A stretch of 64,000 bases of DNA, from assembly GCA_934190785.1 (NCBI GenBank), contig CAKPTA010000001.1:13514-77513 (forward strand), given 5' to 3'. The notes below the pieces were generated by a model, which worked only from the letters and a program-made list of their open reading frames with translations, was not told the DNA's origin and did no database searches. Made by a program: the position numbers and the translations under genes. Numbering within the stretch: position 1 is the stretch's first letter; every line of letters begins with the position of its first letter. Of the stretch, positions 1 through 64,000 are shown one piece after another. The stretch comes from an uncultured Bacilli bacterium (GTDB lineage: Bacteria > Bacillota_I > Bacilli_A > RF39 > UBA660).

Positions 1-641
1 ATTATTCATGTGTAGAGTGTTTTGTTCTTGATGTTACATCTAAAATTGATAGAGAAAAACTTAGAAAAATAGATATTGATGTTATTGTATTAAATGCCGC
101 ACTATGTATTGGTGGAACGCTGGTTAATTTAGATTCTTCATTAATTAGAAAAAATTATGAAGTTAATGTTTTTTCTAATTTAGAATTAATCCAAACTATT
201 TTACCTAATATGATAAAAAAGAGAAGTGGTAAGATAATTGTTATGTCTTCACTTGCAGGAATTTATCCTGTTAGCTTTATTGGAAGTTATTCTTCTAGTA
301 AAGCTGCTTTAATTAAAATTACTGAGACGCTTAGGCGTGAAGTTAAACTAATTGATAAAAATATAAAATTTTGTTTAATAGAACCAGGATTTTATTATAC
401 TGGATTTAATCAAGTTATGTTTGATGAAGCTTATGATACATTAAATATATATTTTAAAAACAAAAAGAATGTTATAATTAATAGAGGTAAATTGATTCAT
501 AAATTTATAGAAAAGAAGAATTTTGACTCAATTGTAAAAAAGATAATTAAAGCAATCAATAGTACAGGTAATAAGTTTATATATAGAGCTCCATTCTTGC
601 AAGTTGTTGGTGCAAAAATATATAGTTTATTTTTTGAATAA
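1..641 (+). CDS. short-chain dehydrogenase/reductase (SDR), 5'-truncated by the window edge
   Basis: Frame is open from nt 3. Contains 'VLDVTSK', 'VLNAA' and the catalytic 'YSSSKAAL' (YxxxK) SDR motif. Confidence 0.75.
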   Translation, partial: YSCVECFVLDVTSKIDREKLRKIDIDVIVLNAALCIGGTLVNLDSSLIRKNYEVNVFSNLELIQTILPNMIKKRSGKIIVMSSLAGIYPVSFIGSYSSSKAALIKITETLRREVKLIDKNIKFCLIEPGFYYTGFNQVMFDEAYDTLNIYFKNKKNVIINRGKLIHKFIEKKNFDSIVKKIIKAINSTGNKFIYRAPFLQVVGAKIYSLFFE

Positions 642-687
642 CTTTTATATAAATCTTTTTTGTGTTAAAATATATAAGGTGATAGAT

Positions 688-2187
688 ATGGGTGAAAAGG
701 GGAGCCTAAAAAATAGAATAAAAGAATGGAATTTAAGACGAAAGATAAGACTTAAAAAGAAACAGGAAGAAGTTTTAGAGAAAAAAAAGAAAGCAAAAGA
801 AAAAGCTGAGAAGAATAATTTAGAGAGATTACCACTAAAAGAACGCATTAAGGTTTCACTTAAGTTTGTGTTTGGAATATTTTTAGGTTTTGTAGAACAT
901 ATAAGTAATAATTTATTAAAGAAAACAGAAATTGTAAGAAAAGACGAAAAAAATAATAATGAAAATAAAAATATTAAAGATGCTATAGATATAAAAGATA
1001 ATGAAAAAGAAAAAGATAAAAACATGGAATATGAGTCTTTAGATAAATCTAGTAAAGATATTAAACCTATAAAAGAAACGTATAAGGAAGACGTGTATCC
1101 TTATACAAAAGGAGTAAAACAAAAGCCTCATAAAATTATACCTTTTATTTTGAGTATACCTTTTGCTGTAGCAGAAAATAGTAGTAAAATTAAGCCAATA
1201 AAGATTTTATATAGTAATCATTTTAATGAATCAAAAAAATCTAAGGAAAGAGAGCTTGAAACAAAAAAAGCAAGAGAAAAATATGTTCAAAATAGAATTA
1301 AAATGTTTACAGCTAATATAAATGATGTTAAAAACAGTTTAAGTAAAGTATCAGAACTAGATGACTTTGATAAAAAAAGAGAATTAATAGAACTAAGAAG
1401 TAGGGTAGTTAATTTAAAAAAACAATATTTGAGCTTTAGAGATGAGTGTAATGCTATTGGGTTTAAAAAAATAAAGGTAATAGATGATATTGACCCATAT
1501 AATTTAAGATATAGTGCTAGTTATATCACAGCACTCATAAGTGAATGTGAAAATGAACTTTCAGGTATTAAAAGAAGAAAAATAGATAAAATTGATTCTG
1601 TTAAGAATGATATGAACACTATAAAGAATTTGATAAATACAAATATAAATGAACAAGATATGGATATTGACAAAATTAGAGTTGCTTTTAAGAATGCAAG
1701 TATGGGAAAGAAAAGAAGTAGTATTGTAACAGGTGTTCATAATTTTTTAACAAAAACAATTAATATTGGGATGAGTTTAGTGCCAGTAGCTGTTTGCAAA
1801 AATAAGGCTATAGGTATGCTTGGTAGTGTGGTTGTTTTAAATAATCGTATACGTTCTATGAGAAAAATGATAAATAAAAAAAATCAGAATATAAATGATA
1901 TTTTATATAGTGATATATCATCATCAATTCAAACAGAAAAAAATTGTGTTTTAAAGACAAGAGAAATGCTTAATGATGCTAAAATGCAACTAGAAAATTT
2001 GAAACAAGAATTTATAATGGAATTTTATTATGATATGGATCGCTATACCGAAGCAAATGATATTATGTTAGAATTTTCTGATATTATGTATCAACTTTCT
2101 AGTAGAGAAGATGCACTAGATGAATATGAAAATAAATTATTTAATGAAGATGAAAAATTAAAACAAAAAGTAAAAATAATGAATTAA
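688..2187 (+). CDS. hypothetical Lys/Glu-rich coiled-coil protein with predicted hydrophobic segments
   Basis: Long ORF with AAGGTGA RBS 7 nt upstream of ATG 688. The track ORF 604 start lacks an RBS. KEKxEK-rich low-complexity N-terminus; no recognisable catalytic motif. Confidence 0.5.
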   Translation: MGEKGSLKNRIKEWNLRRKIRLKKKQEEVLEKKKKAKEKAEKNNLERLPLKERIKVSLKFVFGIFLGFVEHISNNLLKKTEIVRKDEKNNNENKNIKDAIDIKDNEKEKDKNMEYESLDKSSKDIKPIKETYKEDVYPYTKGVKQKPHKIIPFILSIPFAVAENSSKIKPIKILYSNHFNESKKSKERELETKKAREKYVQNRIKMFTANINDVKNSLSKVSELDDFDKKRELIELRSRVVNLKKQYLSFRDECNAIGFKKIKVIDDIDPYNLRYSASYITALISECENELSGIKRRKIDKIDSVKNDMNTIKNLINTNINEQDMDIDKIRVAFKNASMGKKRSSIVTGVHNFLTKTINIGMSLVPVAVCKNKAIGMLGSVVVLNNRIRSMRKMINKKNQNINDILYSDISSSIQTEKNCVLKTREMLNDAKMQLENLKQEFIMEFYYDMDRYTEANDIMLEFSDIMYQLSSREDALDEYENKLFNEDEKLKQKVKIMN

Positions 2188-2307
2188 AATGGGGTTTATT
2201 AATTCCATTTTTTATTTGCTTTTTTGGAATATGAGATTTAACTTATTTAAATACTTTATCTATTGTTTAATAAATGATATACTACTAGATAGGATAGAGG
2301 TGATTTT

Positions 2308-3324
2308 ATGAATTATATTGATAATGTTAATTATAGAATAAAAGAATATTTTAATGTTTTAGAACCAAAATATCCAAGATGGCTTAATGATTATATAAAT
2401 ACTAAAGAAATGTTGCATCAACAATACATAAGTATTACTTGTGGAACAATTTATTCTGATTTATATAAAAGTGATTTCTTTTTTTCTACTTTAGACCATT
2501 CGATTGCCGTAGCACTTATTATTTGGCATTTTACTCATGATAAAAAACAAACTTTAGCTGGACTTTTTCACGATATTGCAACACCTGTTTTTAAGCATTG
2601 TATTGATTTTTTAAATGGCGACTATATGAATCAAGAATCTACTGAGGATTTAACAACTTTGATTATTAGTAATTCCAATGAAATAATGAAATTATTAAGA
2701 CGTGACAATATTAATATTGATGATGTATGTGATTATCACATATATCCTATTGCAGATAATGATACACCAAGGCTTTCATCTGATCGATTAGAATATTCTC
2801 TTTCTAATGCTTTATTTACATATGATTTAAAAGATATTGATTGGGTATTTAAAATATATAATGATATTGAAGTTGGTACTAATGAAGATGGTATAGCAGA
2901 ACTTGTATTTAAAACAGAGGATGCTGCATTATCTTTTGTTGATGTGACTAGCAAGTTATCAATAATATATAGGGAAGATAAAACAAGATATTCCATGCAA
3001 CTACTAGCTGATATTATTAAACGCTTAAATAATGATAATGTTATTAATAAAAGTGATTTATATACTAAAAAGGAAGAAGAGATAATTGACATTATAAGAA
3101 AATCTAATTGTAGTAGTATTTTTAATAAGTGGGAACATGCTAGGGAGGTAATTTCATCAAAAACAAAACCAGAGGGTGTATATTATGTTCACCATGCCTC
3201 AAAAATAAGATACATTAATCCGCTTGTTAAAAATTCTAGAATATATAATATAAATAAATCAGCCAAAGAAATGATAGATAATAATTTAGCATATGATATG
3301 TCAAATTATATTTATCTTGGTTAA
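2308..3324 (+). CDS. HD-domain phosphohydrolase family protein
   Basis: 'HS..VA…LAGLFHDIATPVFKH' H…HD motif; AGGTGA-like RBS ('agaggtgatttt ATG'). Confidence 0.6.
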   Translation: MNYIDNVNYRIKEYFNVLEPKYPRWLNDYINTKEMLHQQYISITCGTIYSDLYKSDFFFSTLDHSIAVALIIWHFTHDKKQTLAGLFHDIATPVFKHCIDFLNGDYMNQESTEDLTTLIISNSNEIMKLLRRDNINIDDVCDYHIYPIADNDTPRLSSDRLEYSLSNALFTYDLKDIDWVFKIYNDIEVGTNEDGIAELVFKTEDAALSFVDVTSKLSIIYREDKTRYSMQLLADIIKRLNNDNVINKSDLYTKKEEEIIDIIRKSNCSSIFNKWEHAREVISSKTKPEGVYYVHHASKIRYINPLVKNSRIYNINKSAKEMIDNNLAYDMSNYIYLG

Positions 3325-3350
3325 AAATAGTTTAGTTGGGAGGATTTATT

Positions 3351-3980
3351 ATGGCATCTGCTATAATACATATTGCTGTTGCAAAAAAAGTTAATGATAT
3401 AATAAACAGAAATAAAAAAGATTTATATTTAGGTGCAATAGCACCTGATGCGGCAAAAATAATTGGCATTGATAGAAATATAACTCATTTTATAAAAGAA
3501 GATAATGTTGATACACCTAATATAGCGTATTTTAAGCAACTTTATTTTGATAAAATAAAAAGTGACTATGATCTTGGTTATTACATTCATCTTTTAACTG
3601 ATGAATTATGGTTTAGCGAGTTTTTACCTAATTTTGTGTTAGATGATGAAACAATAATTGATCCATCTGGCGAAAAAGTTTCACTTGTTGGTATTACAAT
3701 TGGTGATATCATTTATAATGATTATACAAACTTGAATGCTAAAATAATTGATTATTATAATCTTGATTTAAAACTTTTTTATGAAGAATTTGAATATCCT
3801 AGTCCAACTATAAAAGAAGTACCAGAATGTGCTTTTCCACAAGTTATTGATAAAATGGGACTTATAATAGCGAATTCTACAAAGTATAATTATATTTTGA
3901 AGTTGGATAAAATAACTCATTTTGTTGAATATGCAACAGTATACGTGTTAGAAAAATTGACGGAAGATAATTTAATTTAG
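3351..3980 (+). CDS. hypothetical protein (possible metal-dependent hydrolase fold: N-terminal 'HIAVA…APDA…THF' and 'HLLTDELW')
   Basis: ORF with GGGAGGA RBS 7 nt before ATG 3351. Motifs are reminiscent of Zn-dependent phospholipase C-like small proteins, but the assignment is weak. Confidence 0.45.
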   Translation: MASAIIHIAVAKKVNDIINRNKKDLYLGAIAPDAAKIIGIDRNITHFIKEDNVDTPNIAYFKQLYFDKIKSDYDLGYYIHLLTDELWFSEFLPNFVLDDETIIDPSGEKVSLVGITIGDIIYNDYTNLNAKIIDYYNLDLKLFYEEFEYPSPTIKEVPECAFPQVIDKMGLIIANSTKYNYILKLDKITHFVEYATVYVLEKLTEDNLI

Positions 3981-3997
3981 TGTTAAGGAAGATATAT

Positions 3998-5137
3998 ATG
4001 GAAAATGATATTAATTTATTTAAAGATAGAGCTTGGATTGAAATTGATTTGGATAATCTAAAGCACAATATAAATGAGATAAAAAAAGTTATTTCAGATA
4101 AAACAAAGATTATGGCAGTTGTAAAAGCAAATGCTTATGGACATGGAAGTATCTTAATTGCCAAAAAATTAGAAAGTATAGGTATTACTGATTTTGCTGT
4201 TGCAACATTGGATGAAGGAATTGAACTTAGAAAAAATAATATATCTGGTAATATTTTAATACTAGGGTATACTAATCCAACAGATTTAAAATATGTTATT
4301 AAATATAATTTAATTCAAACGATCGTTGATTATGATTATTCACTTGCTATTAAAAGTTTAGATTTACCTTCTAAACTTAAATGTCATGTAAAGATAAATA
4401 CAGGTATGAATCGTATTGGAGAGAAATTCAATGATTTAGATAAAATAGAGGATATTTACAATAATAAGAAACTTGAAATTCTTGGTATCTTTAGTCATTT
4501 ATGTGTGGCTGACTCAAATAATGAAGATGACATTAAGTTTACAAGAATGCAAATTGCTAATTTTGATAACTGTATTAAAAATCTTAAGGAAAAAGGTTAT
4601 TGTGTTGGACTAACTCATATTCAAAGTAGTTATGGTATTATTAATTATAATAATCTTGAATATGATTATGTTCGCCCAGGATTAATCATGTATGGTGTAG
4701 ATGGAAATGATGATATATACAAGAATATAAAACTTGATTTAAAACCAGTTTTATCACTTAAAGCAAGAGTAACTAGTATTAAAGAGATAGACGTAGGTGA
4801 GAGTATTAGTTATGGTAGAACTTATGTAGCCTCATCAAAACAAAAAATTGCTACTGTTGCAATTGGATATGCTGATGGAGTGCCAAGATGTTTATCTAAT
4901 AAAGATGTAGTAGTAAAAATTAACGGTACATATAAACCTATTTTAGGAAAAATATGTATGGATCAATTAGTTATTGATATGAATGATGTAGACGATATAA
5001 AAGTTGGCGATACTGTTTATTTTATTGATAGTGATGATGATAAATTAAGTGCACTTTCGCTTGCTGATAAAGCTTGTACTATAACTTATGAAATTTTAAG
5101 TAGATTAGGTAGTAGATTACCAAGAGTGAAAAAGTAA
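3998..5137 (+). CDS. alr: alanine racemase
   Basis: PLP-binding signature 'AVVKANAYGHG', 385-aa size class, AAGGAAG RBS before ATG 3998. Confidence 0.9.
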   Translation: MENDINLFKDRAWIEIDLDNLKHNINEIKKVISDKTKIMAVVKANAYGHGSILIAKKLESIGITDFAVATLDEGIELRKNNISGNILILGYTNPTDLKYVIKYNLIQTIVDYDYSLAIKSLDLPSKLKCHVKINTGMNRIGEKFNDLDKIEDIYNNKKLEILGIFSHLCVADSNNEDDIKFTRMQIANFDNCIKNLKEKGYCVGLTHIQSSYGIINYNNLEYDYVRPGLIMYGVDGNDDIYKNIKLDLKPVLSLKARVTSIKEIDVGESISYGRTYVASSKQKIATVAIGYADGVPRCLSNKDVVVKINGTYKPILGKICMDQLVIDMNDVDDIKVGDTVYFIDSDDDKLSALSLADKACTITYEILSRLGSRLPRVKK

Positions 5138-26741: not shown

Positions 26742-26777
26742 AAACGAATTTTATAATTCGTTTTTATTTTTTTATTT
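26742..26777 (+). terminator. rho-independent terminator after tRNA-Ser
   Basis: AAACGAATTttatAATTCGTTT hairpin plus T-rich tract. Confidence 0.65.
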
Positions 26778-26839
26778 TGATAAATTATAGTTTAGGCAAG
26801 AAAATAGATGCTCCATATATTAAAGTAAGGAGGTATTTT

Positions 26840-27433
26840 ATGTCATTAAAAAAATGTGCTGAAATAGAAAAAAATGCTAAAATTAAAAATAAATTATTAA
26901 ATATTGGCATTGGATATCCAATAATAGGTCCAACAGGACCAAGAGGTGAAGCAGGTCAAAGAGGAGAAAAGGGTGAAAAAGGTGATAAAGGAGATCCTGG
27001 AGTAGATGCTGTTGCTTCAAATGATGGAATTTTTTTCACAAGTTTTGTAGAAACTGATACATCAGAAAAGATGACTTTTCAAGACTCTTGGTTTGTACCA
27101 AATAAAACAGAATTTTTTCAAATATTAAATGATAGTGATGTACAGGTAAAAGCTGGTATTTATGAACTAGCCTTTTCAGGGTTAATAGAACAAGCAGATG
27201 ATACTCATGGAGCTCAAGTTTATCTTCAAACTAGCGAAGGCGAAGCGGTTCACGATTTAACATTTAAGTTGGAAGGTGGAAGTGGAAAACAATTGTCATT
27301 TTCACAGACAATATTGTTTAGATTTGAAAAAGATACAATATTGCAAGTGATGGCAAATATATTAGGTGATGAAGATACATCTGATATTATTATATCTGAT
27401 GTTAATTTACTCATGAAAAAAATTCATGAATAA
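26840..27433 (+). CDS. collagen-like (G-x-y)n repeat protein with C-terminal BclA/C1q-like globular domain
   Basis: 'GPTGPRGEAGQRGEKGEKGDKGDPG' triple-helix repeats followed by a roughly 140-aa beta-rich domain; AAGGAGG RBS before ATG 26840. Confidence 0.7.
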   Translation: MSLKKCAEIEKNAKIKNKLLNIGIGYPIIGPTGPRGEAGQRGEKGEKGDKGDPGVDAVASNDGIFFTSFVETDTSEKMTFQDSWFVPNKTEFFQILNDSDVQVKAGIYELAFSGLIEQADDTHGAQVYLQTSEGEAVHDLTFKLEGGSGKQLSFSQTILFRFEKDTILQVMANILGDEDTSDIIISDVNLLMKKIHE

Positions 27434-27465
27434 ATTTATACGAATAGTCCAGGTACACCCACACG

Positions 27466-27501
27466 CCACTTGACAAGTGGGGGTGGGGTGTATGCTAAAA
27501 T
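27466..27501 (+). promoter_or_regulatory. putative promoter/operator upstream of the pilin-like gene
   Basis: Perfect inverted repeat CCACTTG-a-CAAGTGG (27466..27480) overlaps a TTGACA hexamer (27470..27475). TAAAAT at 27496, but spacing to −35 is non-canonical. The surrounding segment is unusually GC-rich. Confidence 0.35.
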
Positions 27502-27529
27502 ACACTTTAGAATAGAGGTGTATTTTTTT

Positions 27530-29122
27530 ATGAAAAAGAAAGGTTTTACGCTTATAGAATTACTTGCCGTAATAGTTGTTCTAGCAGTAGTCACATTAAT
27601 ATCAATGCCACTAGTATTAAATACAATAGATAAGGCAAAGAAAGGTGCAGCTATAGAATCAGCTAATGGTGTTATATCAGCAGCTGAGAATAAATACATG
27701 AGTAGTATGATAACAGGAGATAAAGATACAAGATTTGATTTTCCAAGTGATACCAAGTTATCAATCAAAGGAACAAGACCAACAAGTGGAACAGTTGTCG
27801 TTGATAAGAAAGGTAATATAAGTGCTACTTTAGAAATAAATGGATACTGCATAGAAAAGACGTTTCTTGAAACATCACCAAAAGTAATAGAAAAAAGTCC
27901 ATGTACAATTAGTGATAGTGAGCTTTTTGAAGCAGAAAAATATAAAGATTCTGTTTTAAATGGAGCAGACCCTGTTATAAATAGTGACTTAGTAGCAGTA
28001 ACAATAGAAAATGATGGAACAGTAAAAAAAGCCGATATCAAAAAAGAATGGTATAACTATAAAAATAAAGTATGGGCCAATGCGATTATTCTAAAAGATA
28101 AAACAATAAACTATGAAGATAATGAAGTAATACCAGAAAGTAATATTGAATCATATTTTGTATGGATACCAAGATATAAATATAGAATATTTAATGAAGG
28201 AAATTATACAAACTATATAGAAGGAAAACCAGAAAGTTCAAGTAAACCAGATACAATAGAAATAGTATTTGAAGATAAAAACACAAGTGTATCAAAAGGA
28301 AGTAAAGTAGGAGAATACTTAACACATCCAGCCTTTACAAGTTTTGAAAGTAATGGATTTTGGATGGGAAAATTTGAAGTAACAGGAAGTACAAGTAATA
28401 TAACAGTAAAACCAAATAATACATCACTTCGAAATATAAATGTAAAATCAATGTTTGAGCTAGCTTACAATTATAATAGAAATTTAGATAGTCATATGTT
28501 AAAAAATACTGAATGGGGAGCAGCTACATACTTATCATATTCAGTATATGGAATAAATGATGAAGTAAATATAAATAATAATAGTAACTTTGTAACAGGA
28601 TATAGTGCGGTTTCTGGAACAGATCAAAGTAGTTATCCTGGAATATATGGAACCGCATCAAATATAACACTTGCATATAATACAGAAACAGGATATAGGG
28701 CAAGTACAACAGGAAATATAAGTGGAGTATACGATATGAGTGGAGGAGCATGGGAATACATGGCTTCATATGTAAAAGATACATATAAAGATAGTGGTTT
28801 TGATGCATCCTCAATATCTAAGTATAATTCAAAATACTTTGATGTTTATCCAAGTCCAAGTGGATGGACAAGCTATAACAAACGAATTTTAGGAGATGCA
28901 ACGGGAGAGATGGGACCATTCTATTATTACAAAGAAAAAGATGAAACTAGTAGAATACATAACTCTTGGTTTGGTGTCTCCTCTGACTTCGTTGTCGCTT
29001 CTTACCCTTGGTTCGGTCGCGGAGGCCGTTACACTGGCGGCGTTCTTGCAGGTCAGTCGGGCTTCGGTAGGTTCACTGGTGGTGCGCTCGGTTGGGGTGG
29101 CTTCCGCCTCGCTCTTACATAA
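27530..29122 (+). CDS. type IV pilin-like protein with large C-terminal domain (prepilin-type N-terminal cleavage/methylation signal)
   Basis: 'MKKKGFTLIELLAVIVVLAVVTL' class-III signal peptide. 530-aa body rich in N/T/S/Y. Gly/Arg-rich C-terminal tail. AGAGGTG RBS. Confidence 0.7.
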   Translation: MKKKGFTLIELLAVIVVLAVVTLISMPLVLNTIDKAKKGAAIESANGVISAAENKYMSSMITGDKDTRFDFPSDTKLSIKGTRPTSGTVVVDKKGNISATLEINGYCIEKTFLETSPKVIEKSPCTISDSELFEAEKYKDSVLNGADPVINSDLVAVTIENDGTVKKADIKKEWYNYKNKVWANAIILKDKTINYEDNEVIPESNIESYFVWIPRYKYRIFNEGNYTNYIEGKPESSSKPDTIEIVFEDKNTSVSKGSKVGEYLTHPAFTSFESNGFWMGKFEVTGSTSNITVKPNNTSLRNINVKSMFELAYNYNRNLDSHMLKNTEWGAATYLSYSVYGINDEVNINNNSNFVTGYSAVSGTDQSSYPGIYGTASNITLAYNTETGYRASTTGNISGVYDMSGGAWEYMASYVKDTYKDSGFDASSISKYNSKYFDVYPSPSGWTSYNKRILGDATGEMGPFYYYKEKDETSRIHNSWFGVSSDFVVASYPWFGRGGRYTGGVLAGQSGFGRFTGGALGWGGFRLALT

Positions 29123-32751: not shown

Positions 32752-33543
32752 ATGAAACTTTATTTAGATTTGATCTTTTTTCTGAATTTTAGTTTTGATT
32801 TTATGCTTTTACTTACTGTATCTGTAGTCCTTAAAAGAAATGTTTCTTTTAAAAGAATTTTTATGGGAGCTTTAATTGGTGCTATGAGTATTTTTTGTTT
32901 GTTTATTAAAATATCTTCTTTTACTCTTTTTTTATTTAAATTATTTATTAGTGTGATTATGATTATAGTTACATTTAAATTTAAAGATTTTTCATATTTT
33001 ATCAAAAATATGGGATATTTTTATATGGTAAGTATTATTTTAGGTGGTTTCTTATATTATCTAAATATTGAATTTTCTTATAAACAAGAAGGACTTGTTT
33101 TTTATCACCACGGCTTGTCAATTAATTTTGTTATCTTAGTTATAATTTCGCCTATTATTTTATATAATTATATAAGACAGGCACGTTTTTTTCGTAAAAG
33201 TGTTAGTTATTATCACAATGTTAGTTTGATGTATAAGGGCATTAAATATAATTTGTTTGGATATTTGGATACTGGTAATACTCTAAAGAGTCCATATTCT
33301 AACAAATGTGTTTCTATTATTAATAAAAATATTTTAACAGATATTAGTGACTCTGACGTTATATACATTAAGGCATCAACAGTATCGTCAAGTAAACTTA
33401 TGAAATGTATAAAAGTTAGTTATTTAAAAATTGATAATAAATATATTTATGATGCTCTTGTTGGAATTAGTTATGAAGATATTTTATTTGATGGGGTAGA
33501 TATTTTATTAAATAGGGATATATTGGAGGATGAAAATTTATGA
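32752..33543 (+). CDS. spoIIGA: sigma-E processing peptidase SpoIIGA
   Basis: Multi-TM N-terminus 'MKLYLDLIFFLNFSFDFMLL' and aspartic protease motif 'GYLDTGNTL'; immediately followed by sigE. Confidence 0.85.
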   Translation: MKLYLDLIFFLNFSFDFMLLLTVSVVLKRNVSFKRIFMGALIGAMSIFCLFIKISSFTLFLFKLFISVIMIIVTFKFKDFSYFIKNMGYFYMVSIILGGFLYYLNIEFSYKQEGLVFYHHGLSINFVILVIISPIILYNYIRQARFFRKSVSYYHNVSLMYKGIKYNLFGYLDTGNTLKSPYSNKCVSIINKNILTDISDSDVIYIKASTVSSSKLMKCIKVSYLKIDNKYIYDALVGISYEDILFDGVDILLNRDILEDENL

Positions 33544-34229
33544 TTAGAAAATTAATTAGCTTTTTTTATAGAATATTTAGAAGTAATAGTATTTTCTTTG
33601 TTGGTAGTGCAGATAAACTTCCAGAACCATTATCAAAAGAAGATGAGATTTTTTATGTTGAAAAAGCAACTTTGGGTGATACAGAAGCCAAAAGTAAATT
33701 AATAGAACATAATTTAAGATTGGTTGTCTTTTTAGCTAAAAAATATGAAAATACAGGTGTTGATTTAGAGGATTTAGTAAGTATTGGTACAATTGGACTT
33801 ATTAAGGGAATAAATACATATAAATTAGATAAGAATATTAAGCTTGCAACATATGCATCTCGTTGTATTGATAATGAAATATTAATGTTTTTAAGAAAAA
33901 ATAAAAAAAGAAAAAGTGAAATTAGTTTTGAAGATAGTCTTAGTTATGACAGTGAAGGTAATGAACTTCATTTAGAAGATATTTTAGGAACGGATGAAGA
34001 TATTGTTACATCTGGCCTAGAGAGAGAAACAGAAAAGAACTTATTATTAGGTGAAATAAATAGACTAAAGGGTAGAGATAGAGAAATTATGATTATGAGA
34101 TATGGACTTTTTGGAGCTGATGCAATGACACAAAAAGATGTTGCACTTACACTTGGAATTAGTCAGTCATATATATCGAGAATTGAAAAGAAAATAATTT
34201 TACGTTTAAAAAATAATATTCGTGTGTAA
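33540..34229 (+). CDS. sigE: sporulation sigma factor SigE (pro-sigma-E)
   Basis: Pro-sequence, then 'LSKEDEIFYVEKATLGDTEAKSKLIEHNLRLVVFLAKKYENTGVDLEDLVSIGTIGLIKGINTY'; overlaps the spoIIGA stop. Confidence 0.9.
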   Translation: MIRKLISFFYRIFRSNSIFFVGSADKLPEPLSKEDEIFYVEKATLGDTEAKSKLIEHNLRLVVFLAKKYENTGVDLEDLVSIGTIGLIKGINTYKLDKNIKLATYASRCIDNEILMFLRKNKKRKSEISFEDSLSYDSEGNELHLEDILGTDEDIVTSGLERETEKNLLLGEINRLKGRDREIMIMRYGLFGADAMTQKDVALTLGISQSYISRIEKKIILRLKNNIRV

Positions 34230-58149: not shown

Positions 58150-59778
58150 ATGGAAGTATCAGTAGTAAAAAGTAAAAAAGAAATTAAATTGTATTTAGAT
58201 GGATATAGTAGAGTTATTAATGAAACATTTTGCTATATTCTAGGAAATATATATAATTTAGATAAACTTGCCCCAAGTGGTATAACAAATGAGGAAAAAT
58301 TAATAGAGGCATATAAAATATATAAAAATAAACTATTTAAAAAACTAGATGGTGAATTTGCTATAATACTCATTTTTAATGGGAATATTACATGTGTTAG
58401 AGATAGAATGGGTAGCAAGCAAATATATTATATGTTGAAAGATGATACAACAGTTATATCAACTTCATTAGGCTTTTTTATAAAAAATTATAAAGAAATG
58501 TTAAATATAGATAGACAAGTATTATCTAATTATTTATGTTATTCCTATATACAAGCTCCAAATACTATTTTTAAAGAAGTATCTAAATTAGAATCAGGCA
58601 GTTTTGTACAGTTTAAAAATAGTACTGTACTTATAAAAAAATATTATAATTTAGTTAATGAATATTTAAAAAGTAAAGATAAATTACATGGAAAAAAATC
58701 ATTTGCGGCAATGGAAGATAGTTTAAAAAAAGCTGTTTTAAAACGCGTAAAAAATAAAAATAAAATAGGTATATTTTTTAGTGCTGGAATTGATTCTACC
58801 TTATTAGCGTCACTCTCACATGAATTAACTGATAAGGAAATACATGCTTATACAATAGGCTTTTATGATGAAGAAAGAAACGAAGCTGTGAGAGCTAAGA
58901 AAATTGCTGAGTATATTGGCATTAATTATCACGAATTTTATATAGATGATATAGCTGCAAAAGAAATAATTCATCAACTTCCTTTCATTTATTCAGAACC
59001 ATTTGCAGATCCATCAATGATACCAACTGTATTTTTAAATCAAAACGTCGATAAGGTTGATGTTATTTTAACTGGAGATGGAGCTGATCAATTATTTTGT
59101 GGCTCTAGCGTTTATGATACAGTGTATGAACGCAATATCTTTGCACTGTTACAAAAAGAATTTCTAGAAATAATTCATAGAAGAAAAAAATACAAACAAG
59201 CAAAAGATAGTATTTTAAAGGTATATAATGGTAAAAAAGATATGGCTTTAAAATTTGTAGATATAGAACCAAACAGTTATTATGATCTAGCTTTAGTTCC
59301 TCTTAAAGCTCAAATTAAATATATGTTGTTTGATATTAAAACTTTTTTAGCAAATAGATTATTTAGTAAAGTTAGTTTTCCAGCAGGTTACTATAATCTA
59401 AACATTACGCATCCTTTTGTTGATAATGAATTTGTAGATAAAACATTAAAACTTAGTCATAAGTATAAATATAATTATAAAGTTAAAAAATATATTTTGA
59501 AGAAAATATTATATAAAAGAATACCAGAAGAATTATTAAATCAGAAGAAGTGTGGATTTGGAATTCCACTTAAGGAATGGCTTTATAATATATACAGAGA
59601 AGATATAATATTGTTATCAAATGAAGAATTTATAAAGAAACAAAATTTATTTAATTTTAATAAAGTAAATAATATAATACAAAAACTTAATAATAATTCA
59701 CTAAACCATAAGGAAGCCTATACTTTATTCGCATATTATATGTTTCAACTTTGGTATAAAGCTTATATAGAAAATTAA
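58150..59778 (+). CDS. asparagine synthetase B-like amidotransferase/amidoligase lacking the N-terminal Cys nucleophile (paralog of 52573..54222)
   Basis: 'VRDRMGSKQIYY', PP-loop 'FSAGIDST'; N-terminus 'MEVSVVK…' has no Cys2. Confidence 0.65.
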   Translation: MEVSVVKSKKEIKLYLDGYSRVINETFCYILGNIYNLDKLAPSGITNEEKLIEAYKIYKNKLFKKLDGEFAIILIFNGNITCVRDRMGSKQIYYMLKDDTTVISTSLGFFIKNYKEMLNIDRQVLSNYLCYSYIQAPNTIFKEVSKLESGSFVQFKNSTVLIKKYYNLVNEYLKSKDKLHGKKSFAAMEDSLKKAVLKRVKNKNKIGIFFSAGIDSTLLASLSHELTDKEIHAYTIGFYDEERNEAVRAKKIAEYIGINYHEFYIDDIAAKEIIHQLPFIYSEPFADPSMIPTVFLNQNVDKVDVILTGDGADQLFCGSSVYDTVYERNIFALLQKEFLEIIHRRKKYKQAKDSILKVYNGKKDMALKFVDIEPNSYYDLALVPLKAQIKYMLFDIKTFLANRLFSKVSFPAGYYNLNITHPFVDNEFVDKTLKLSHKYKYNYKVKKYILKKILYKRIPEELLNQKKCGFGIPLKEWLYNIYREDIILLSNEEFIKKQNLFNFNKVNNIIQKLNNNSLNHKEAYTLFAYYMFQLWYKAYIEN

Positions 59779-59804
59779 AAAGAAGACTTAATCTTCTTTT
59801 TTTG
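59779..59804. terminator. bidirectional rho-independent terminator
   Basis: AGAAGActtaaTCTTCT hairpin flanked by A-run and T7. The loop contains the stop codon of the minus-strand small ORF. Confidence 0.65.
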
Positions 59805-59958
59805 CTTTATAACTAGCACACATTGTAGTCTTTTTTTCGCCACAACCATCGCAGTTGCATACGTCAATTTTTTTAAGTCCACACTTGTCGCATTTACAAT
59901 CACAATGTTCACAGTCGTGAACTTTACAATTAATTGTTTGTTCATCGTTTTTTTTCAA
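59788..59958 (-). CDS. unannotated 56-aa cysteine-rich small protein (10 Cys; metallothionein-like/metal-binding peptide)
   Basis: GGGTGA RBS 5 nt before TTG 59958. Translation is 'MKKNDEQTINCKVHDCEHCDCKCDKCGLKKIDVCNCDGCGEKKTTMCASYKAKKED'. An alternative GTG start lies 9 nt upstream. Absent from the ORF track (<60 aa). Confidence 0.45.
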   Translation of the reverse strand: MKKNDEQTINCKVHDCEHCDCKCDKCGLKKIDVCNCDGCGEKKTTMCASYKAKKED

Positions 59959-60045
59959 TTTAATCACCCATTTTTATTTTTATCAAAGTTTAATAATTTA
60001 TTCATAAAATAAAAACAAATTCATACGATTATATGGGTGAATGAT

Positions 60046-60957
60046 ATGGACAAGATAGTAATTGGAATACCAAGAAGTTTATACTACTATTATTTTAAAG
60101 ATTTATGGCTTTCGTTTTTTCAAGGTTTAAACATAAAAGTCGTTGTTAGTCCAAAAACAACTAAAGATATTGTAATGCTTGGAAGCAAATATGGAAGTGA
60201 TGAGATGTGCACTGCTATGAAAAATTATTTAGGTCATGTTGCTTATCTTAAAGATAAATGTGATTACATTTTAATTCCACGAATTGATAATTATGGAATT
60301 GAAAATCAGACATGTACTAATTATTTATCATGTTATGACATTGTAAATAACTTAATCACAAATAAGATAATTGATTATAATATTGACATTAATCATGGAA
60401 AAACAGAAGAAAAAGCATTTATACAAATAGGAAAAATACTTGGGTATGATACAGAATTTACAAAAAGAGTTTACTATGAAGCATTAACAGTTGCAAATAA
60501 TAAAAAAGACGCTATAGTAAAAGCTAATATGGTTGCTTTAAAAAGTGAACACACGAAACTATTGATAGTTGCTCATCCATATATAATTCATGATTCATAT
60601 TTTGGTGATGAAATAAAAAATTATCTAAAAAAACAAAATGTTGATGTCATTTATAGTGATAGATTTAATAGTAGTTTAACATCTCGTATGAGTAAAATGT
60701 ATTCTAAAGAACTTTATTTTAAATATTCTAAAGAAAACATTGGTGCTCTTGCCCTTACAAGAAAACTAATAGATGGTGTTATTTTTTTGACAGCTTTTCC
60801 TTGTGGACCTGATTCACTTACAAATGAGTTAGTTATCCGAAAAATAGATATTCCATATTTACAGTTAATTCAAGATGATCTTGATGGTGTTGCTGGAATG
60901 GAAACTAGATTAGAAAGTTTTCTAGATATTATAGAAAGGAAAAAAGTACATGAATAA
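60046..60957 (+). CDS. DUF2229-type 'CoA-substrate-specific enzyme activase' domain protein
   Basis: 'IGIPRSLYYYYFKDLWLSFFQGLNIKVVVSPKTTKDIV…EMCTAMKNYLGHVAYLKDKCDYILIPRI' matches the DUF2229 N-terminal consensus. GGGTGA RBS before ATG 60046. Confidence 0.6.
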   Translation: MDKIVIGIPRSLYYYYFKDLWLSFFQGLNIKVVVSPKTTKDIVMLGSKYGSDEMCTAMKNYLGHVAYLKDKCDYILIPRIDNYGIENQTCTNYLSCYDIVNNLITNKIIDYNIDINHGKTEEKAFIQIGKILGYDTEFTKRVYYEALTVANNKKDAIVKANMVALKSEHTKLLIVAHPYIIHDSYFGDEIKNYLKKQNVDVIYSDRFNSSLTSRMSKMYSKELYFKYSKENIGALALTRKLIDGVIFLTAFPCGPDSLTNELVIRKIDIPYLQLIQDDLDGVAGMETRLESFLDIIERKKVHE

Positions 60958-62020
60958 ACTAAATGTTTCATTTCCACATATGGGTAATTACAGTATTCCT
61001 GTTGAATATTTACTATCACATATACTAAATTGTGATATTATGGTAGCTCCTAAAATAACTAGTTCAACGATTGAAGAAGGTACAAAACATAGTCCTGAAT
61101 TTGTTTGTACTCCATTTAAATATACACTTGGTACATTTATTGAGGCTTTAGATGGAGGTGCCAATGTATTAATTCAAGCTGGTGGTGGCTGTAGGTATGG
61201 ATATTATAGTGAACTGCAAGAAAAAATATTAAAAGATTTAGGTTATAATTTTACATATATTAATTTAGTTAGTAGAGGTTATACTGATATTCATAGAATA
61301 TATAAAAAAATGAAAAGTATTGACCCTAAATTTAGTAAAATAAAAGGTATTTATTATAGCTATATTACTAAAAACATGATTAAGTATATGGATAGAGTAG
61401 AAGATTTTATTCGCCTTCATATTGGTTTTGAAGTAAATAAAGGTTCTTTTGAAAAAATAGAAAAAGAAATGCTTCGTGATTTTTCAAATGTAAGTAATCC
61501 AGTATCACTCTATATTCTTTATAAGAAATATTTAAGAAAAATAAAAAAGGTAAAAGTTAATATTCCCAAAAATGCTATGAAAGTTGGTATTATTGGTGAA
61601 CTTTATACACTCATGGAACCATTTGCTAATTATGATCTTGAAAAATTATTAGCAAGTTATGGTATTGCTGTTAAAAGATATACTAATGTACATTATTTAT
61701 TATTTGAAAAAAAGTACAAAATAAAGAAATATTTAAAATATGCTCGTGAGTATGTTAAATATAAAATGGGAGCGGATGCTGCTGATAATATTGCACGTAC
61801 AAAATATTTATGTGCTAATAATTATGATGGAATTATACATATTAAATCGTCTTTTTGTACTCCAGAGATTGGAGCTATGCCTATCATTAATAAGATATGT
61901 AAGGAATATAATGTTCCTGTTATATTTTTTTCTTTTGATGCAGCAACATCAGAAGTTGGAATAAAAACAAGAATAGAAGCATTTTATGATATGTTAGAAA
62001 TGAGGAAGAAGCATGAATAA
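60950..62020 (+). CDS. 2-hydroxyacyl-CoA dehydratase component-D-like / double-cubane-cluster-protein-like subunit
   Basis: 'VCTPFKYTLGTFIEALDGGANVLIQAGGGCRYGYY' and 'SSFCTPEIG' resemble HgdB-family cluster-binding regions. Start overlaps the upstream stop in a 'CATGAATAA' junction. Confidence 0.55.
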   Translation: MNKLNVSFPHMGNYSIPVEYLLSHILNCDIMVAPKITSSTIEEGTKHSPEFVCTPFKYTLGTFIEALDGGANVLIQAGGGCRYGYYSELQEKILKDLGYNFTYINLVSRGYTDIHRIYKKMKSIDPKFSKIKGIYYSYITKNMIKYMDRVEDFIRLHIGFEVNKGSFEKIEKEMLRDFSNVSNPVSLYILYKKYLRKIKKVKVNIPKNAMKVGIIGELYTLMEPFANYDLEKLLASYGIAVKRYTNVHYLLFEKKYKIKKYLKYAREYVKYKMGADAADNIARTKYLCANNYDGIIHIKSSFCTPEIGAMPIINKICKEYNVPVIFFSFDAATSEVGIKTRIEAFYDMLEMRKKHE

Positions 62021-62972
62021 TTGTTATTTAGGAATTGATATAGGTTCAATTTCAACTAAAGGTGTTGTAATAGATGAGAATAATAATATTATTGCAAGAG
62101 AATATATTTGGACAGAAGGTAATCCTAAGGAAGCAGCATCTAGATTACTTGGTATTCTAAAAAGTAAATTAAGCAAAAAATATGTAGTTAAAGGTATTGG
62201 AACAACAGGTAGTGCCAGAAAATTAATTGGGTTAATGGTTGATGCGAATATCGTCAAAAATGAGATAACAGCTCATGCCGTAGGTACTTTATCAAAATAT
62301 CCAGATGTTAAAACAATTTTAGAAATAGGTGGGCAAGATTCTAAAATAATTATATTAGATAATGGTATTATCACTGATTATTCAATGAATACATTGTGTT
62401 CAGCGGGAACAGGATCATTTTTATCAAGTCAAGCTAAAAGACTTGGAATAGAGGTAGAAAATTTTGGATCCCTTGCTCTAAAATCAAAAAATCCCGTTAA
62501 AATAGCAGCAAGATGTACTGTTTTTGCAGAATCTGATTTAATTCATAAAGCCCAAGTAGGGTATAAATTAGAAGATATTGTAGCAGGATTATGTAAAAGT
62601 ATAGTTCTTAATTATTTGAATAATGTTGGCAAAGGTAAAAAGATTAAAGGCCCTATTATTTTTCAGGGTGGTGTTAGTAAAAATAAGGGTGTTGTTCATT
62701 TCTTTAAAGAAATTTTAAAAGAAGATATAATAGTTGATGAAGATAGTCATTTAATGGGAGCTCTTGGAATTGCTATTATGGCTCATGAAAAAGCAAATGG
62801 TAAAATATATAATTTAGATTTAAAACATATGAAACTTGATACTAAAGGGTTTGAGTGTAAAAGATGCGCTAATAATTGTGAAATCTTAAGAATATATAAA
62901 GAAGGAGAATTAGTTGATACTTGGGGAAGTAGATGTGGAAGAGATTTTTCAAGTGATAAAGTAAAACAATAG
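62013..62972 (+). CDS. BadF/BadG/BcrA/BcrD-type ATPase (HgdC-like activator) with C-terminal Cys-rich extension
   Basis: 'LGIDIGSISTKGVVID', 'EITAHAVGT', 'LEIGGQDSKIIIL'. Cluster-bridging Cys in 'CSAGTGSFL' and 'AARCTVFAESD'. C-terminal 'CKRCANNC…C'. Same 'CATGAATAA' junction. Confidence 0.7.
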   Translation: MNNCYLGIDIGSISTKGVVIDENNNIIAREYIWTEGNPKEAASRLLGILKSKLSKKYVVKGIGTTGSARKLIGLMVDANIVKNEITAHAVGTLSKYPDVKTILEIGGQDSKIIILDNGIITDYSMNTLCSAGTGSFLSSQAKRLGIEVENFGSLALKSKNPVKIAARCTVFAESDLIHKAQVGYKLEDIVAGLCKSIVLNYLNNVGKGKKIKGPIIFQGGVSKNKGVVHFFKEILKEDIIVDEDSHLMGALGIAIMAHEKANGKIYNLDLKHMKLDTKGFECKRCANNCEILRIYKEGELVDTWGSRCGRDFSSDKVKQ

Positions 62973-62979
62973 GCTAGGC

Positions 62980-63312
62980 CTATTGTTTTCTTATATTAAT
63001 ATAATTTTGTTCTTTTATCATTTTATATAATGCACTATCATGCGAAAATTCATATGTATAATATACATCTTTTTTATTAAAAATTATTCTATTTGGTTTC
63101 ATATTTTCTTTTGTATAAATAATTTCATTATTTTTATTAGTCATAATTACATCTATATTTTGAAACATAAAAAAAGTGTGAATACTGTTGCACCTAGGAA
63201 AACAATATATAGAGTTAATGTGACGTTTTTTAAAACTCATACCAAGTAGTCTTGCTTTAAAATTATTACAATATATAACAGGAATTGTTTTGTTCTTAAA
63301 TATAATTTCCAT
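62980..63312 (-). CDS. DUF192 domain protein
   Basis: 'ARLLGMSFKKR…CNSIHTFFMFQNIDVIM' DUF192 pattern. Internal ATG 63312 is preceded by an AGGTGA RBS; the track's TTG 63357 has no RBS. Confidence 0.6.
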   Translation of the reverse strand: MEIIFKNKTIPVIYCNNFKARLLGMSFKKRHINSIYCFPRCNSIHTFFMFQNIDVIMTNKNNEIIYTKENMKPNRIIFNKKDVYYTYEFSHDSALYKMIKEQNYINIRKQ

Positions 63313-63411: not shown

Positions 63412-63609
63412 ATGAGACTAAATGAAAGAGGGCAAGCACTTGTTGAGTACTTATTAATTATCGCTGTTATAAGTGTTGTTGTTGTTAGTGTTGTAAAACT
63501 TCTTGGAGGTTATTTACACGATTCAATGGTTAAATCATCTTGTAATTTGGTAGATAAAGTTTATGTAGAGGGTTCAAAACCTGGAGAAGCTACTTGTGTA
63601 GATCAATAA
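63412..63609 (+). CDS. flp: Flp-family type IVb pilin
   Basis: 'MRLNERGQALVEYLLIIAVISVVVVSV' Flp motif (G/xxxxEY) plus hydrophobic helix; 65 aa. Confidence 0.7.
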   Translation: MRLNERGQALVEYLLIIAVISVVVVSVVKLLGGYLHDSMVKSSCNLVDKVYVEGSKPGEATCVDQ

Positions 63610-63699
63610 AACTTCTTTTAGAAGTTTTTTTTCTATTCCAATTATTGTATATAACTTCATTTTTTGATATAATTTGTATATGGTAAAGAGAGTGATTTA

Positions 63700-64000
63700 A
63701 TGAATAGAAAAGGGCAAGCATTAGTGGAATTTGTGCTTATTATACCAGTCTTTATTTTACTAGTTCTAGGTGTGCTTGAATTTGGTAATATTATTTATCA
63801 AAAGTACCAGTTAGAAAGTAAATTAGATTATATAGTGGAGTTATATAAAGCAGATGAATTAGATGAAGCAAGTAGTTATGCTTCTAAAGAAAAGATTAAT
63901 GTTAATTATAGTAGCGAAGATAATTTCACTAAAATTATTGCATCAAAACAAAAACAAGTTTCAGCGCCAGTTGTTTCTAATATTTTAGGAAAGAATTATA
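63700..64000 (+). CDS. TadE/TadG-like pseudopilin (3'-truncated by the window edge)
   Basis: 'MNRKGQALVEFVLIIPVFILLVLGVLEFGNIIY' TadE-like N-terminal motif. Confidence 0.65.
   Translation, partial: MNRKGQALVEFVLIIPVFILLVLGVLEFGNIIYQKYQLESKLDYIVELYKADELDEASSYASKEKINVNYSSEDNFTKIIASKQKQVSAPVVSNILGKNY

Follow-up and report, generated by a model that had tools for sequence, protein, structure and literature searches.

The question raised by this locus is which reaction can be served by an ATP-dependent Fe-S system that is encoded away from any coenzyme A (CoA) metabolism. The window, i.e., the whole stretch of DNA analysed here, comprises 64,000 nucleotides (nt) of an uncultured Bacilli bacterium (GenBank assembly GCA_934190785.1, contig CAKPTA010000001.1, positions 13,514 to 77,513 of the forward strand) and contains three co-directional genes coding for a DUF2229 subunit (Red1), an HGD-D-like subunit (Red2), and an activase (Act), together called the triad. 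Judged from its sequence, the operon is a conserved split, single-activase variant of the plasmalogen synthase PlsA/PlsR and glycerol ester reductase Ger kind, which has known relatives and is architecturally not odd. The best explanation overall, given somewhat less than an even chance, is a PlsA-like ATP-driven Fe-S reduction that, by homology, would most likely act on an acyl ester of membrane glycerolipids and give a vinyl or alkyl ether.

The three genes are translationally coupled by two CATGAATAA junctions, both reading cATGAATAA and each forming an 8-nt stop/start overlap; these two identical junctions had been described in a sequence-only reading of the locus, and the open reading frames (ORFs) confirm them. 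Red1 starts at ATG 60046, with an alternative GTG at 60037, and the products of 303, 356, and 319 amino acids (aa) are likewise called by independent gene callers in six public contigs.

Domains, folds, and cysteine ligands of the three subunits

Red1 is matched by Pfam DUF2229 (E 8.5e-34; score 117 bits, cut-off 29.4; positions 2-216 of the 218-position model), Red2 by the C-terminal part of Pfam HGD-D (E 2.8e-13, 50.6 bits against 28.4) in a match confined to residues 261-349 and accompanied by an extra sub-threshold DUF2229 match, and Act by Pfam BcrAD_BadFG (E 5.3e-49) and by TIGR00241, acyl-CoA dehydratase activase (E 1.4e-57). The three family assignments made in the sequence-only reading were all recovered. 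The matches of Act to PDB sequences are the activators of 2-hydroxyacyl-CoA dehydratases (HAD), benzoyl-CoA reductases (BCR), and double-cubane cluster proteins (DCCP), namely MbdQ (1e-43), HadI (1e-41), HgdC (1e-36), and DCCP-R (4.5e-23); a second BcrAD_BadFG gene was found neither in the operon nor in its flanks.

The conservation of cysteine residues was followed in alignments of the window proteins with ~70 homologues from the clade set (the 80 closest species-level relatives of the window locus), ~50-80 homologues from the distant set (84 loci, i.e., three named genomes, Monoglobus, and 80 metagenome contigs), and the Listeria PlsA-type protein. In Act six cysteines are invariant (100%, n=123): C129 in LCSAGTG and C168 in RCTVFAES, which are the cluster-bridging residues and align with the motifs of HadI, HgdC, and MbdQ, and C282-x2-C285-x3-C289-x18-C308, the Cys4 motif (pattern CxxCxNxC…C); their Listeria counterparts are C443, C482, C604, C607, C611, and C630. 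The bridging motifs expected for the ATPase are therefore both present. Three cysteines are invariant in Red1 (C55, C90, and C253; 100%, n=132; Listeria C720, C762, and C931) and three in Red2 (C53, C81, and C303; n=160; Listeria C1056, C1091, and C1351). Such a set of three in each catalytic subunit is typical of the clusters of 2-hydroxyacyl-CoA dehydratases.

The AlphaFold models of Red1 and Red2 are confident, with predicted local distance difference test scores of 88.3 and 91.7. The best PDB folds of Red1 are DCCP 6eno, HadB 3o3o_A, MbdN, and BzdN, with template modelling (TM) scores of 0.5-0.58, and the top 17 of Red2 are all HadB/C, DCCP, BzdN/O, or MbdN/O. Since the significant fold matches of both subunits belong exclusively to these proteins (TM 0.5-0.59, identity 11-16%), DUF2229 can be regarded as a divergent member of the HAD/BCR/DCCP fold and Red1 and Red2 as paralogues, a relation that is also shown by a cross-search with hidden Markov models (HMMs). 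By their activase cysteines, their modelled fold, and their cysteine ligands, Red1, Red2, and Act belong to the BCR/HAD/DCCP radical-enzyme superfamily, and cluster binding is predicted for them; the kinship with this superfamily proposed earlier is thus upheld by fold matches and conserved cysteines.

Two alternatives within the superfamily are touched by these data. A DCCP-like ATP-dependent reductase of small molecules, without a dedicated organic substrate, is suggested by the presence of 6eno and 7yyl among the best fold matches of both Red subunits, by the DCCP-R sequence match of Act, and by a weak NCBIfam double_cubane match. This alternative is very improbable, because the double_cubane model (NF040772), with its cut-off at 350, gives only 17.1 bits, the paralogues Red1 and Red2 make up a heteromer where DCCP is a homodimer, DCCP-R is devoid of the Cys4 tail, and each Red subunit has three invariant cysteines, while a double cubane reportedly needs six from one subunit. 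On the last ground the term 'double-cubane-like' used in the sequence-only reading is not supported.

The other alternative, a classical 2-hydroxyacyl-CoA dehydratase with its activator in amino-acid fermentation, is the least probable of all and close to negligible. It would agree with the names '2-hydroxyacyl-CoA dehydratase' and 'acyl-CoA dehydratase activase', in the style of the Prokaryotic Genome Annotation Pipeline (PGAP), that homologues carry, and with the HAD-type fold and activator; however, the matches of Red2 to HGD-D, HadC, or BzdN cover just its last ~60-90 residues, the NCBIfam equivalogs of the CoA-dehydratase, BCR, and DCCP branches score only 17-23 bits against cut-offs of 350-700 (HadC on Red2, 20.8 bits against 700), and Red1 has zero NCBIfam matches. 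In addition, the known HAD activators lack the Cys4 tail, the HgdC-, HadI-, and YjiL-type proteins aligning to Act only until ~residue 260. Genes for a CoA-transferase, a CoA-ligase, a dehydrogenase, or fermentation were found near the triad in none of the ~160 loci of the clade and distant sets, and the lack of a CoA-metabolising partner, first remarked in the window, is upheld.

Relation to the plasmalogen synthases and distribution of the split form

The giant 'CoA-substrate-specific enzyme activase' proteins, characterised since 2021, are PlsA/PlsR and Ger, in which two activase domains are followed by DUF2229 and then by HGD-D-like pieces; they turn sn-1 esters into vinyl or alkyl ethers under anoxic conditions only and are the sole DUF2229 proteins characterised (PMC9702350, PMC13159169, PMC12838417). 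The references used for comparison are proteins of the same type from PLSDB-filed chromosomes, standing in for the proven enzymes of Clostridium perfringens, Enterococcus faecalis, and Thermotoga maritima: those of Listeria monocytogenes (1475 aa) and Collinsella aerofaciens (1479 aa, with a TetR gene coming next), the two-gene form of Fusobacterium animalis (PlsA 975 aa, PlsR 404 aa), and a 1168-aa ORF of Brevibacillus laterosporus that was called in this analysis, the record having no annotation there.

The triad is collinear with the Act2-Red1-Red2 part of the giants. Act shares 32-35% identity, through residue 310, with their second activase domain and the following Cys4 motif, Red1 21-24% with their DUF2229 module, and Red2 23-27% with PlsR or the C-terminal module (27%, E 3e-13, with the Fusobacterium PlsR-type protein). 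The Pfam pattern of the triad, DUF2229 plus an HGD-D-like match, is also seen in the proteins of Listeria and Fusobacterium, and the activase is followed by CxxCxNxC-(18-22)-C in the giants of Listeria, Collinsella, Fusobacterium, and Brevibacillus as well as in the window and Monoglobus triads; the recognition of this motif after the (second) activase domain as a trait that defines the family is an observation made here on these sequences. Moreover, 23 of the 33 near-invariant positions of Red1 are identical in the Listeria giant, including K59, H64, H177, Y179, D183, and R288. Collinearity, the common Cys4 motif, and these shared residues place the triad in a PlsA-like branch and not in the CoA-dehydratase, BCR, or DCCP branches, in agreement with the kinship to the giants that had been supposed; the low identity to the Listeria, Collinsella, and Fusobacterium proteins is of paralogue level, and the triad is thus probably a paralogous subfamily rather than an orthologue. 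The 'BBD' core, i.e., two fused activation domains and then DUF2229, is reported to be conserved in all alkyl-ether producers (PMC13159169); the triad does not show this single chain, being made of three proteins with one 319-aa activase encoded last. Bacillota with a PlsA/Ger giant also carry extra PlsA homologues without activation domain whose role is unclear (PMC13274423), and the triad, with its separately encoded activase, fits their description. The earlier statement that the role of such proteins is undescribed has consequently to be divided, as it fails for the giants (PMC9702350, PMC13159169, PMC12838417) and stands for the split subfamily (PMC13274423). A further architectural variant of the family is found on the Paraclostridium bifermentans plasmid pHD0315_2-2 (L175:4074-7922), where a 1282-aa fusion of two activase domains, DUF2229, and a C-terminal HGD-D match is devoid of the Cys4 motif and adjoins a Crp/Fnr regulator and an ABC transporter.

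The split form is widespread. The window protein has exact matches in gut metagenome assemblies and in the metagenome-assembled genome (MAG) GCA_964321455.1, and its nearest relatives at species level, 80 in number, are without exception MAGs of uncultured gut organisms classed as 'Bacilli', 'Bacillales', or 'Tenericutes'; Firmicutes bacterium CAG:822 and Ca. Fimihabitans are among them. Of these 80 genomes ~70 keep the order Red1-Red2-Act, as do most of those among the 84 distant loci whose sequence is long enough, far beyond chance, and cultured Clostridia such as Monoglobus, Thermosediminibacter oceani, Crassaminicella indica, and Halanaerocella share it, their genes bearing generic PGAP names. 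In an exhaustive HMMER search, Red2 retrieved 1265 clusters (50% identity). The best 150 were judged for architecture: nearly all are stand-alone proteins of 350-370 aa, approximately eleven are Red1-Red2 fusions (670-770 aa), and none is a giant. The split layout with a single ATPase, considered atypical in the sequence-only reading, is thus normal in a large subfamily, and the C-terminal CxxC…C extension, also considered atypical, is invariant and common with the giants; both features are hallmarks of the family. Among named matches the subfamily is almost entirely from Bacillota. Within the clade Act is the most conserved subunit (62-76% identity), followed by Red2 (53-71%) and Red1 (37-58%). 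Red2-Act occurs without an adjacent Red1 in 6 of the 80 clade loci (L050 at 493-4271, L064, L069, L075, L076, and L082), and Red1-Red2 without an adjacent Act in L060 and L063. Matches of 1.3-1.6 kb in the genome scan, which resembled insertions in Red2, are tblastn runs reaching into the paralogous Red1. Literature searches on the families, the product names, and the spoVA linkage found no study of the split system.

Gene neighbourhood and links to sporulation

Several lines connect the triad to sporulation. The window contains spoIIGA (PF03419, E 1e-40) directly followed, on the same + strand, by a sigma-70-family gene, probably sigE in the spoIIGA-sigE arrangement of endospore formers, and the organism therefore carries mother-cell sporulation genes; clade relatives have sigF-like genes and one also spoVAC-AD-AEB. 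Among the 84 distant loci, many Clostridial triads come right after genes of the spoVA operon that have the same orientation and are themselves preceded by spoIIAA-spoIIAB-sigF, the neighbours being confirmed by Pfam as SpoVAC/SpoVAEB, SpoVAD, SpoVAEA, and GerA-type SpoVAF. The triad follows spoVA in 32 of the 62 distant loci with an upstream neighbour, which after dereplication correspond to 26 of 42 lineages at 70% identity and to 18 of 31 at 60%; the gap ranges from -26 to +204 bp and is ≤50 bp in about half, and lysA is often found downstream. The order spoVAC-spoVAD-spoVAEB(-spoVAEA-spoVAF)-triad was seen among the loci L089, L091, and L092-L171, e.g., in L091 (1794-8000), L097, L104, L117, and L171, and in L050, a member of the window clade, spoVAC-AD-AEB stands immediately before Red2-Act.

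The 78-bp divergent control region of the window operon reads, in order, TCATAAA (60002-60008), 13 nt, CATACGAT (60022-60029), the Shine-Dalgarno (SD) sequence GGGTGA (60035-60040), and the start codon of Red1. The corresponding bipartite element TCATAww-N12-15-[C/A]ATAnnnT precedes the SD of Red1 closely in 39 of the 71 loci of the clade, while random windows taken from these loci gave 0.1 ± 0.4, a count that is not a probability because related loci share ancestry, and is retained in loci without the DUF1540 gene described below. By its consensus the element resembles a mother-cell promoter of the sigma-E type, in which the -35 region contains ATA and the -10 region is CATA-type (PMC3789822); in an alternative reading, GAATA on the opposite strand of the conserved block could serve the divergent gene. 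A scan for sigma-70 promoters gave hits that were not enriched over shuffled sequence, and no Rfam family, riboswitch, or known RNA matched the leader of the triad. Upstream of Clostridial triads a strict sigma-G promoter pattern was found in 2 of 34 gaps only, and the GTATA/GCATA…CATAATA-like boxes seen by eye in a few loci are not relied on.

The one specific conserved neighbour of the triad in the clade is the divergent Cys-rich ORF, which has a DUF1540 domain. It codes for 56 aa from TTG 59958 or 59 aa from GTG 59967, with 11 cysteines; DUF1540 (PF07561) matches the window copy over the full model (1-40 of 40; E 0.03) with 14.9 bits, below the cut-off of 22.1, which an orthologue exceeds with 38.4 bits, and 31 orthologues align with four invariant cysteines and variable extras. 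The gene occupies the same divergent position in 33 of ~70 clade loci with enough upstream sequence, so that the search for a conserved small Cys-rich neighbour that had been proposed gave a positive answer. A search of the 84 distant loci with an HMM of this subfamily gave no copy. The domain tracks the endospore phenotype (PMC2955703) and is present in CdeA/CD2375, a protein of the C. difficile exosporium (PMC7677010) that is spore-associated and whose gene depends on sigma-G (PMC3789822). In the window lineage the triad is probably expressed during sporulation, with or beside this spore-type protein.

The DUF1540 protein might itself be a direct partner of the triad, as a substrate (peptide or protein modification), an electron donor, or an Fe-S/metal carrier. 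The divergent gene with a shared control region in almost half of the clade would favour this relation, and other small thiol or Cys proteins lie beside distant triads, a TSCPD/TIGR03905 protein in Monoglobus (L087:10255-10500) and a glutaredoxin-like one in Crassaminicella (L090:6674-6904); together with DUF1540 they could hint at a thiol-based partner, or be a coincidence. It is nevertheless quite improbable, as the DUF1540 gene is absent in about half of the clade and in all 84 distant loci, is divergent and outside the operon, the three small Cys proteins are of unrelated families, and C. difficile DUF1540 proteins are known at the spore surface (PMC7677010).

With the same machinery, the triad could catalyse a sporulation-specific reaction on a non-lipid target, e.g., a step of the dipicolinate/diaminopimelate branch tied to SpoVA and LysA, or another very-low-potential modification of a spore component in anaerobes. 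The position between spoVA and lysA in many Clostridia, where the triad overlaps or nearly touches spoVAF/spoVAEA in several loci, speaks for this possibility, as do dapF and LL-diaminopimelate aminotransferase near the Monoglobus triad, the sporulation genes of the window organism, the DUF1540 gene conserved in the clade, the restriction to Bacillota, and the presence beside PlsA/Ger giants that has been reported (PMC13274423). It is the main alternative, rather unlikely, though far from negligible: it has no known precedent or chemical requirement, the formation of dipicolinate being an oxidation with a facile dehydration step, and the usual neighbours in the window clade are femAB-like and topA genes. 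The block spoIIA-spoVA-lysA is an old syntenic one in Firmicutes, and the adjacency to spoVA may accordingly be historical. Furthermore, the catalytic-looking residues that Red1 has in common with PlsA suggest a similar chemistry.

The remaining surroundings of the window triad are incidental. It is flanked by a glycan locus (Asn-synthase-like, glycosyltransferase family GT4, and ABC genes) on one side and by a DUF192 gene and a tad/Flp locus on the other (Table 1), the glycan and tad loci having been pointed out in the sequence-only reading; a link to either was rejected, since neither is conserved beside the triad in the 80 related genomes, where the usual neighbours are a gene of the femAB family on the upstream side (37 loci), topA on the downstream side (40 loci), and, farther upstream, the str/tuf operons. 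The DUF192 gene is divergent from the pilin gene that opens the tad locus, which in L001 continues with two TadE genes, a CpaE-like ATPase, TadA, and TadB/C; as DUF192 lies 6-10 kb from the triad in L007-L009, with Flp too in L007 and L008, it probably belongs to the pilus locus. Where the convergent Asn-synthase-like (+) and DUF1540 (-) genes meet, a hairpin with a T run, seen by eye and unlisted by the scan tool, overlaps the last DUF1540 codons and is probably a bidirectional terminator. Elsewhere in the window a 218-aa protein has a weak, sub-threshold collagen-repeat match (23.7 bits, cut-off 27.2), and next to it comes a 550-aa protein with the N-terminal methylation motif of type IV pilins and an FGE-sulfatase-like domain, an unusual pairing.

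Table 1. Position of the triad and of the other features of the window discussed in the text.
Feature	Position	Strand	Basis
Red1, 303-aa DUF2229 subunit, predicted [4Fe-4S]-binding HAD/BCR-fold protein	60046..60957	+	Pfam, conserved Cys, AlphaFold model
Red2, 356-aa Red1 paralogue, equivalent of PlsR / C-terminal module of giants	60950..62020	+	Pfam HGD-D, invariant Cys, model
Act, 319-aa HgdC/HadI-type ATPase (residues 1-260) with C-terminal Cys4 module	62013..62972	+	Pfam, TIGR00241, conserved Cys
Intrinsic terminator hairpin, operon end	62963..62989	+	12-bp stem then T-rich tail; overlaps Act stop codon
Divergent control region, 78 bp	59968..60045	.	sequence reading
DUF1540 Cys-rich protein, divergent from triad	59788..59967	-	ORF list, Pfam DUF1540, alignment
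Hairpin aagaagacttaatcttctt with T run, probable bidirectional terminator	59778..59810		by eye
spoIIGA	32752..33540	+	PF03419
Sigma-70-family gene, putative sigE	33540..34226		position directly after spoIIGA
DUF192 (COG1430) gene	62980..63312	-	
Flp/Fap pilin gene	63412..64000	+	
Protein with sub-threshold collagen-repeat match, followed by pilin-motif/FGE-sulfatase-like protein	26777..29119	+	

Proposed reaction and comparison with known systems

In the mechanism proposed for PlsA-like ether formation, Act, which has one activase domain and is therefore expected to be a homodimer, would hold one [4Fe-4S] cluster between the C129/C168 pairs and would be reduced by ferredoxin or flavodoxin. Upon ATP hydrolysis it would pass a low-potential electron to a Red1-Red2 heterodimer, possibly via the C-terminal Cys4 site. 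Each Red subunit would bind a [4Fe-4S] cluster through its three cysteines, leaving one iron open, and at this iron a substrate other than a CoA thioester might have its carbonyl or ester group reduced or dehydrated via a ketyl-type radical; by homology with PlsA/PlsR and Ger, the product would be a vinyl or alkyl ether.

Different points weigh against this reading. The identity of the Red subunits to PlsA/PlsR-type proteins is just 21-27%, whereas functional homologues show 41-55% identity to C. perfringens PlsA/PlsR (PMC12838417). The giants coexist with homologues devoid of an activation domain (PMC13274423), which argues for a function that is non-redundant and possibly different. A lipid gene is not consistently adjacent to the triad, and the subfamily is nearly confined to Bacillota, while ether lipids and giants are far more widespread. 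As for the sporulation context in which the reaction might take place, the spoVA link may be inherited synteny of spoIIA-spoVA-lysA instead of co-function, and the promoter is assigned by consensus.

A bolder possibility, which has to be called doubtful, is that anaerobic endospore formers have in the triad a core enzyme of sporulation that has escaped recognition: an ATP-driven low-potential Fe-S reductase encoded next to the spoVA operon, or co-transcribed with it, in Clostridia, under a mother-cell-type promoter beside the gene of a DUF1540 spore protein in the gut Bacilli clade, and responsible for a spore-specific reductive step. Candidate steps are the remodelling of ether lipids in spore membranes or dipicolinate/diaminopimelate chemistry, for which aerobes would have a different solution or none.

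The PlsA/Ger giants explained the anaerobic synthesis of ether lipids; the triad gives the activase-lacking homologues of Bacillota a coherent three-gene system with a dedicated activase, in which all predicted metal ligands are kept and which is physically tied to sporulation genes. New elements are the invariant Cys4 tail common with PlsA, the triad as a widespread module, its recurrent position after spoVA, and the DUF1540 neighbour with the promoter-like element. If ether lipids were made by the triad, the plasmalogen marker genes of the gut microbiome would extend to a large uncultured clade; if it had another role in sporulation, a new ATP-dependent radical reaction would enter spore biology.

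Among the known systems, the HADs (HgdAB/HgdC, HadBC/HadI, and FldBC/FldI) resemble the triad in the activase core with its bridging-cluster ligands and in the heterodimeric alpha/beta fold of the catalytic subunits, each with a predicted three-Cys cluster. They differ in that the Red subunits reach TM-scores of ~0.55 and 12-16% identity, the DUF2229 signature replaces a full HGD-D match, Act has the extra Cys4 tail, and a CoA-transferase or fermentation context is absent. Class I BCRs (BzdNOPQ, MbdONPQ, and BcrABCD) provide the best PDB sequence match of Act, MbdQ, and the BzdN/O and MbdN/O fold matches, and share with the triad, as predicted, an ATP-driven low-potential electron transfer; in contrast to it, they have two different ATPase subunits and aromatic CoA thioesters as substrates. 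DCCP/DCCP-R of Carboxydothermus hydrogenoformans (6eno and 7yyl) is the top structural match of Red1 and among the top ones of Red2, and has a separate homodimeric activase, but the Red subunits have three and not six conserved cysteines, the reductase is heteromeric, and the activase of the triad bears a Cys4 tail.

The closest known systems are PlsA/PlsR of C. perfringens (CPE1194/1195), with the single-gene PlsA form known in Enterococcus, Listeria, Lactococcus, and Bifidobacterium, and Ger of Thermotoga maritima (Tmari_0479) and Desulfatibacillum. The triad has the same BcrAD_BadFG activase, DUF2229, and HGD-D-like module, the same order Act2-Red1-Red2 when Red1-Red2-Act is taken as its permutation, the same three cysteines per Red module, and CxxCxNxC…C after the activase, and in both cases a CoA partner is absent. 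Unlike PlsA and Ger, it is split over three polypeptides, has one activase instead of two fused ones with the activase gene in last position, is essentially limited to Bacillota, and is linked to sporulation loci.

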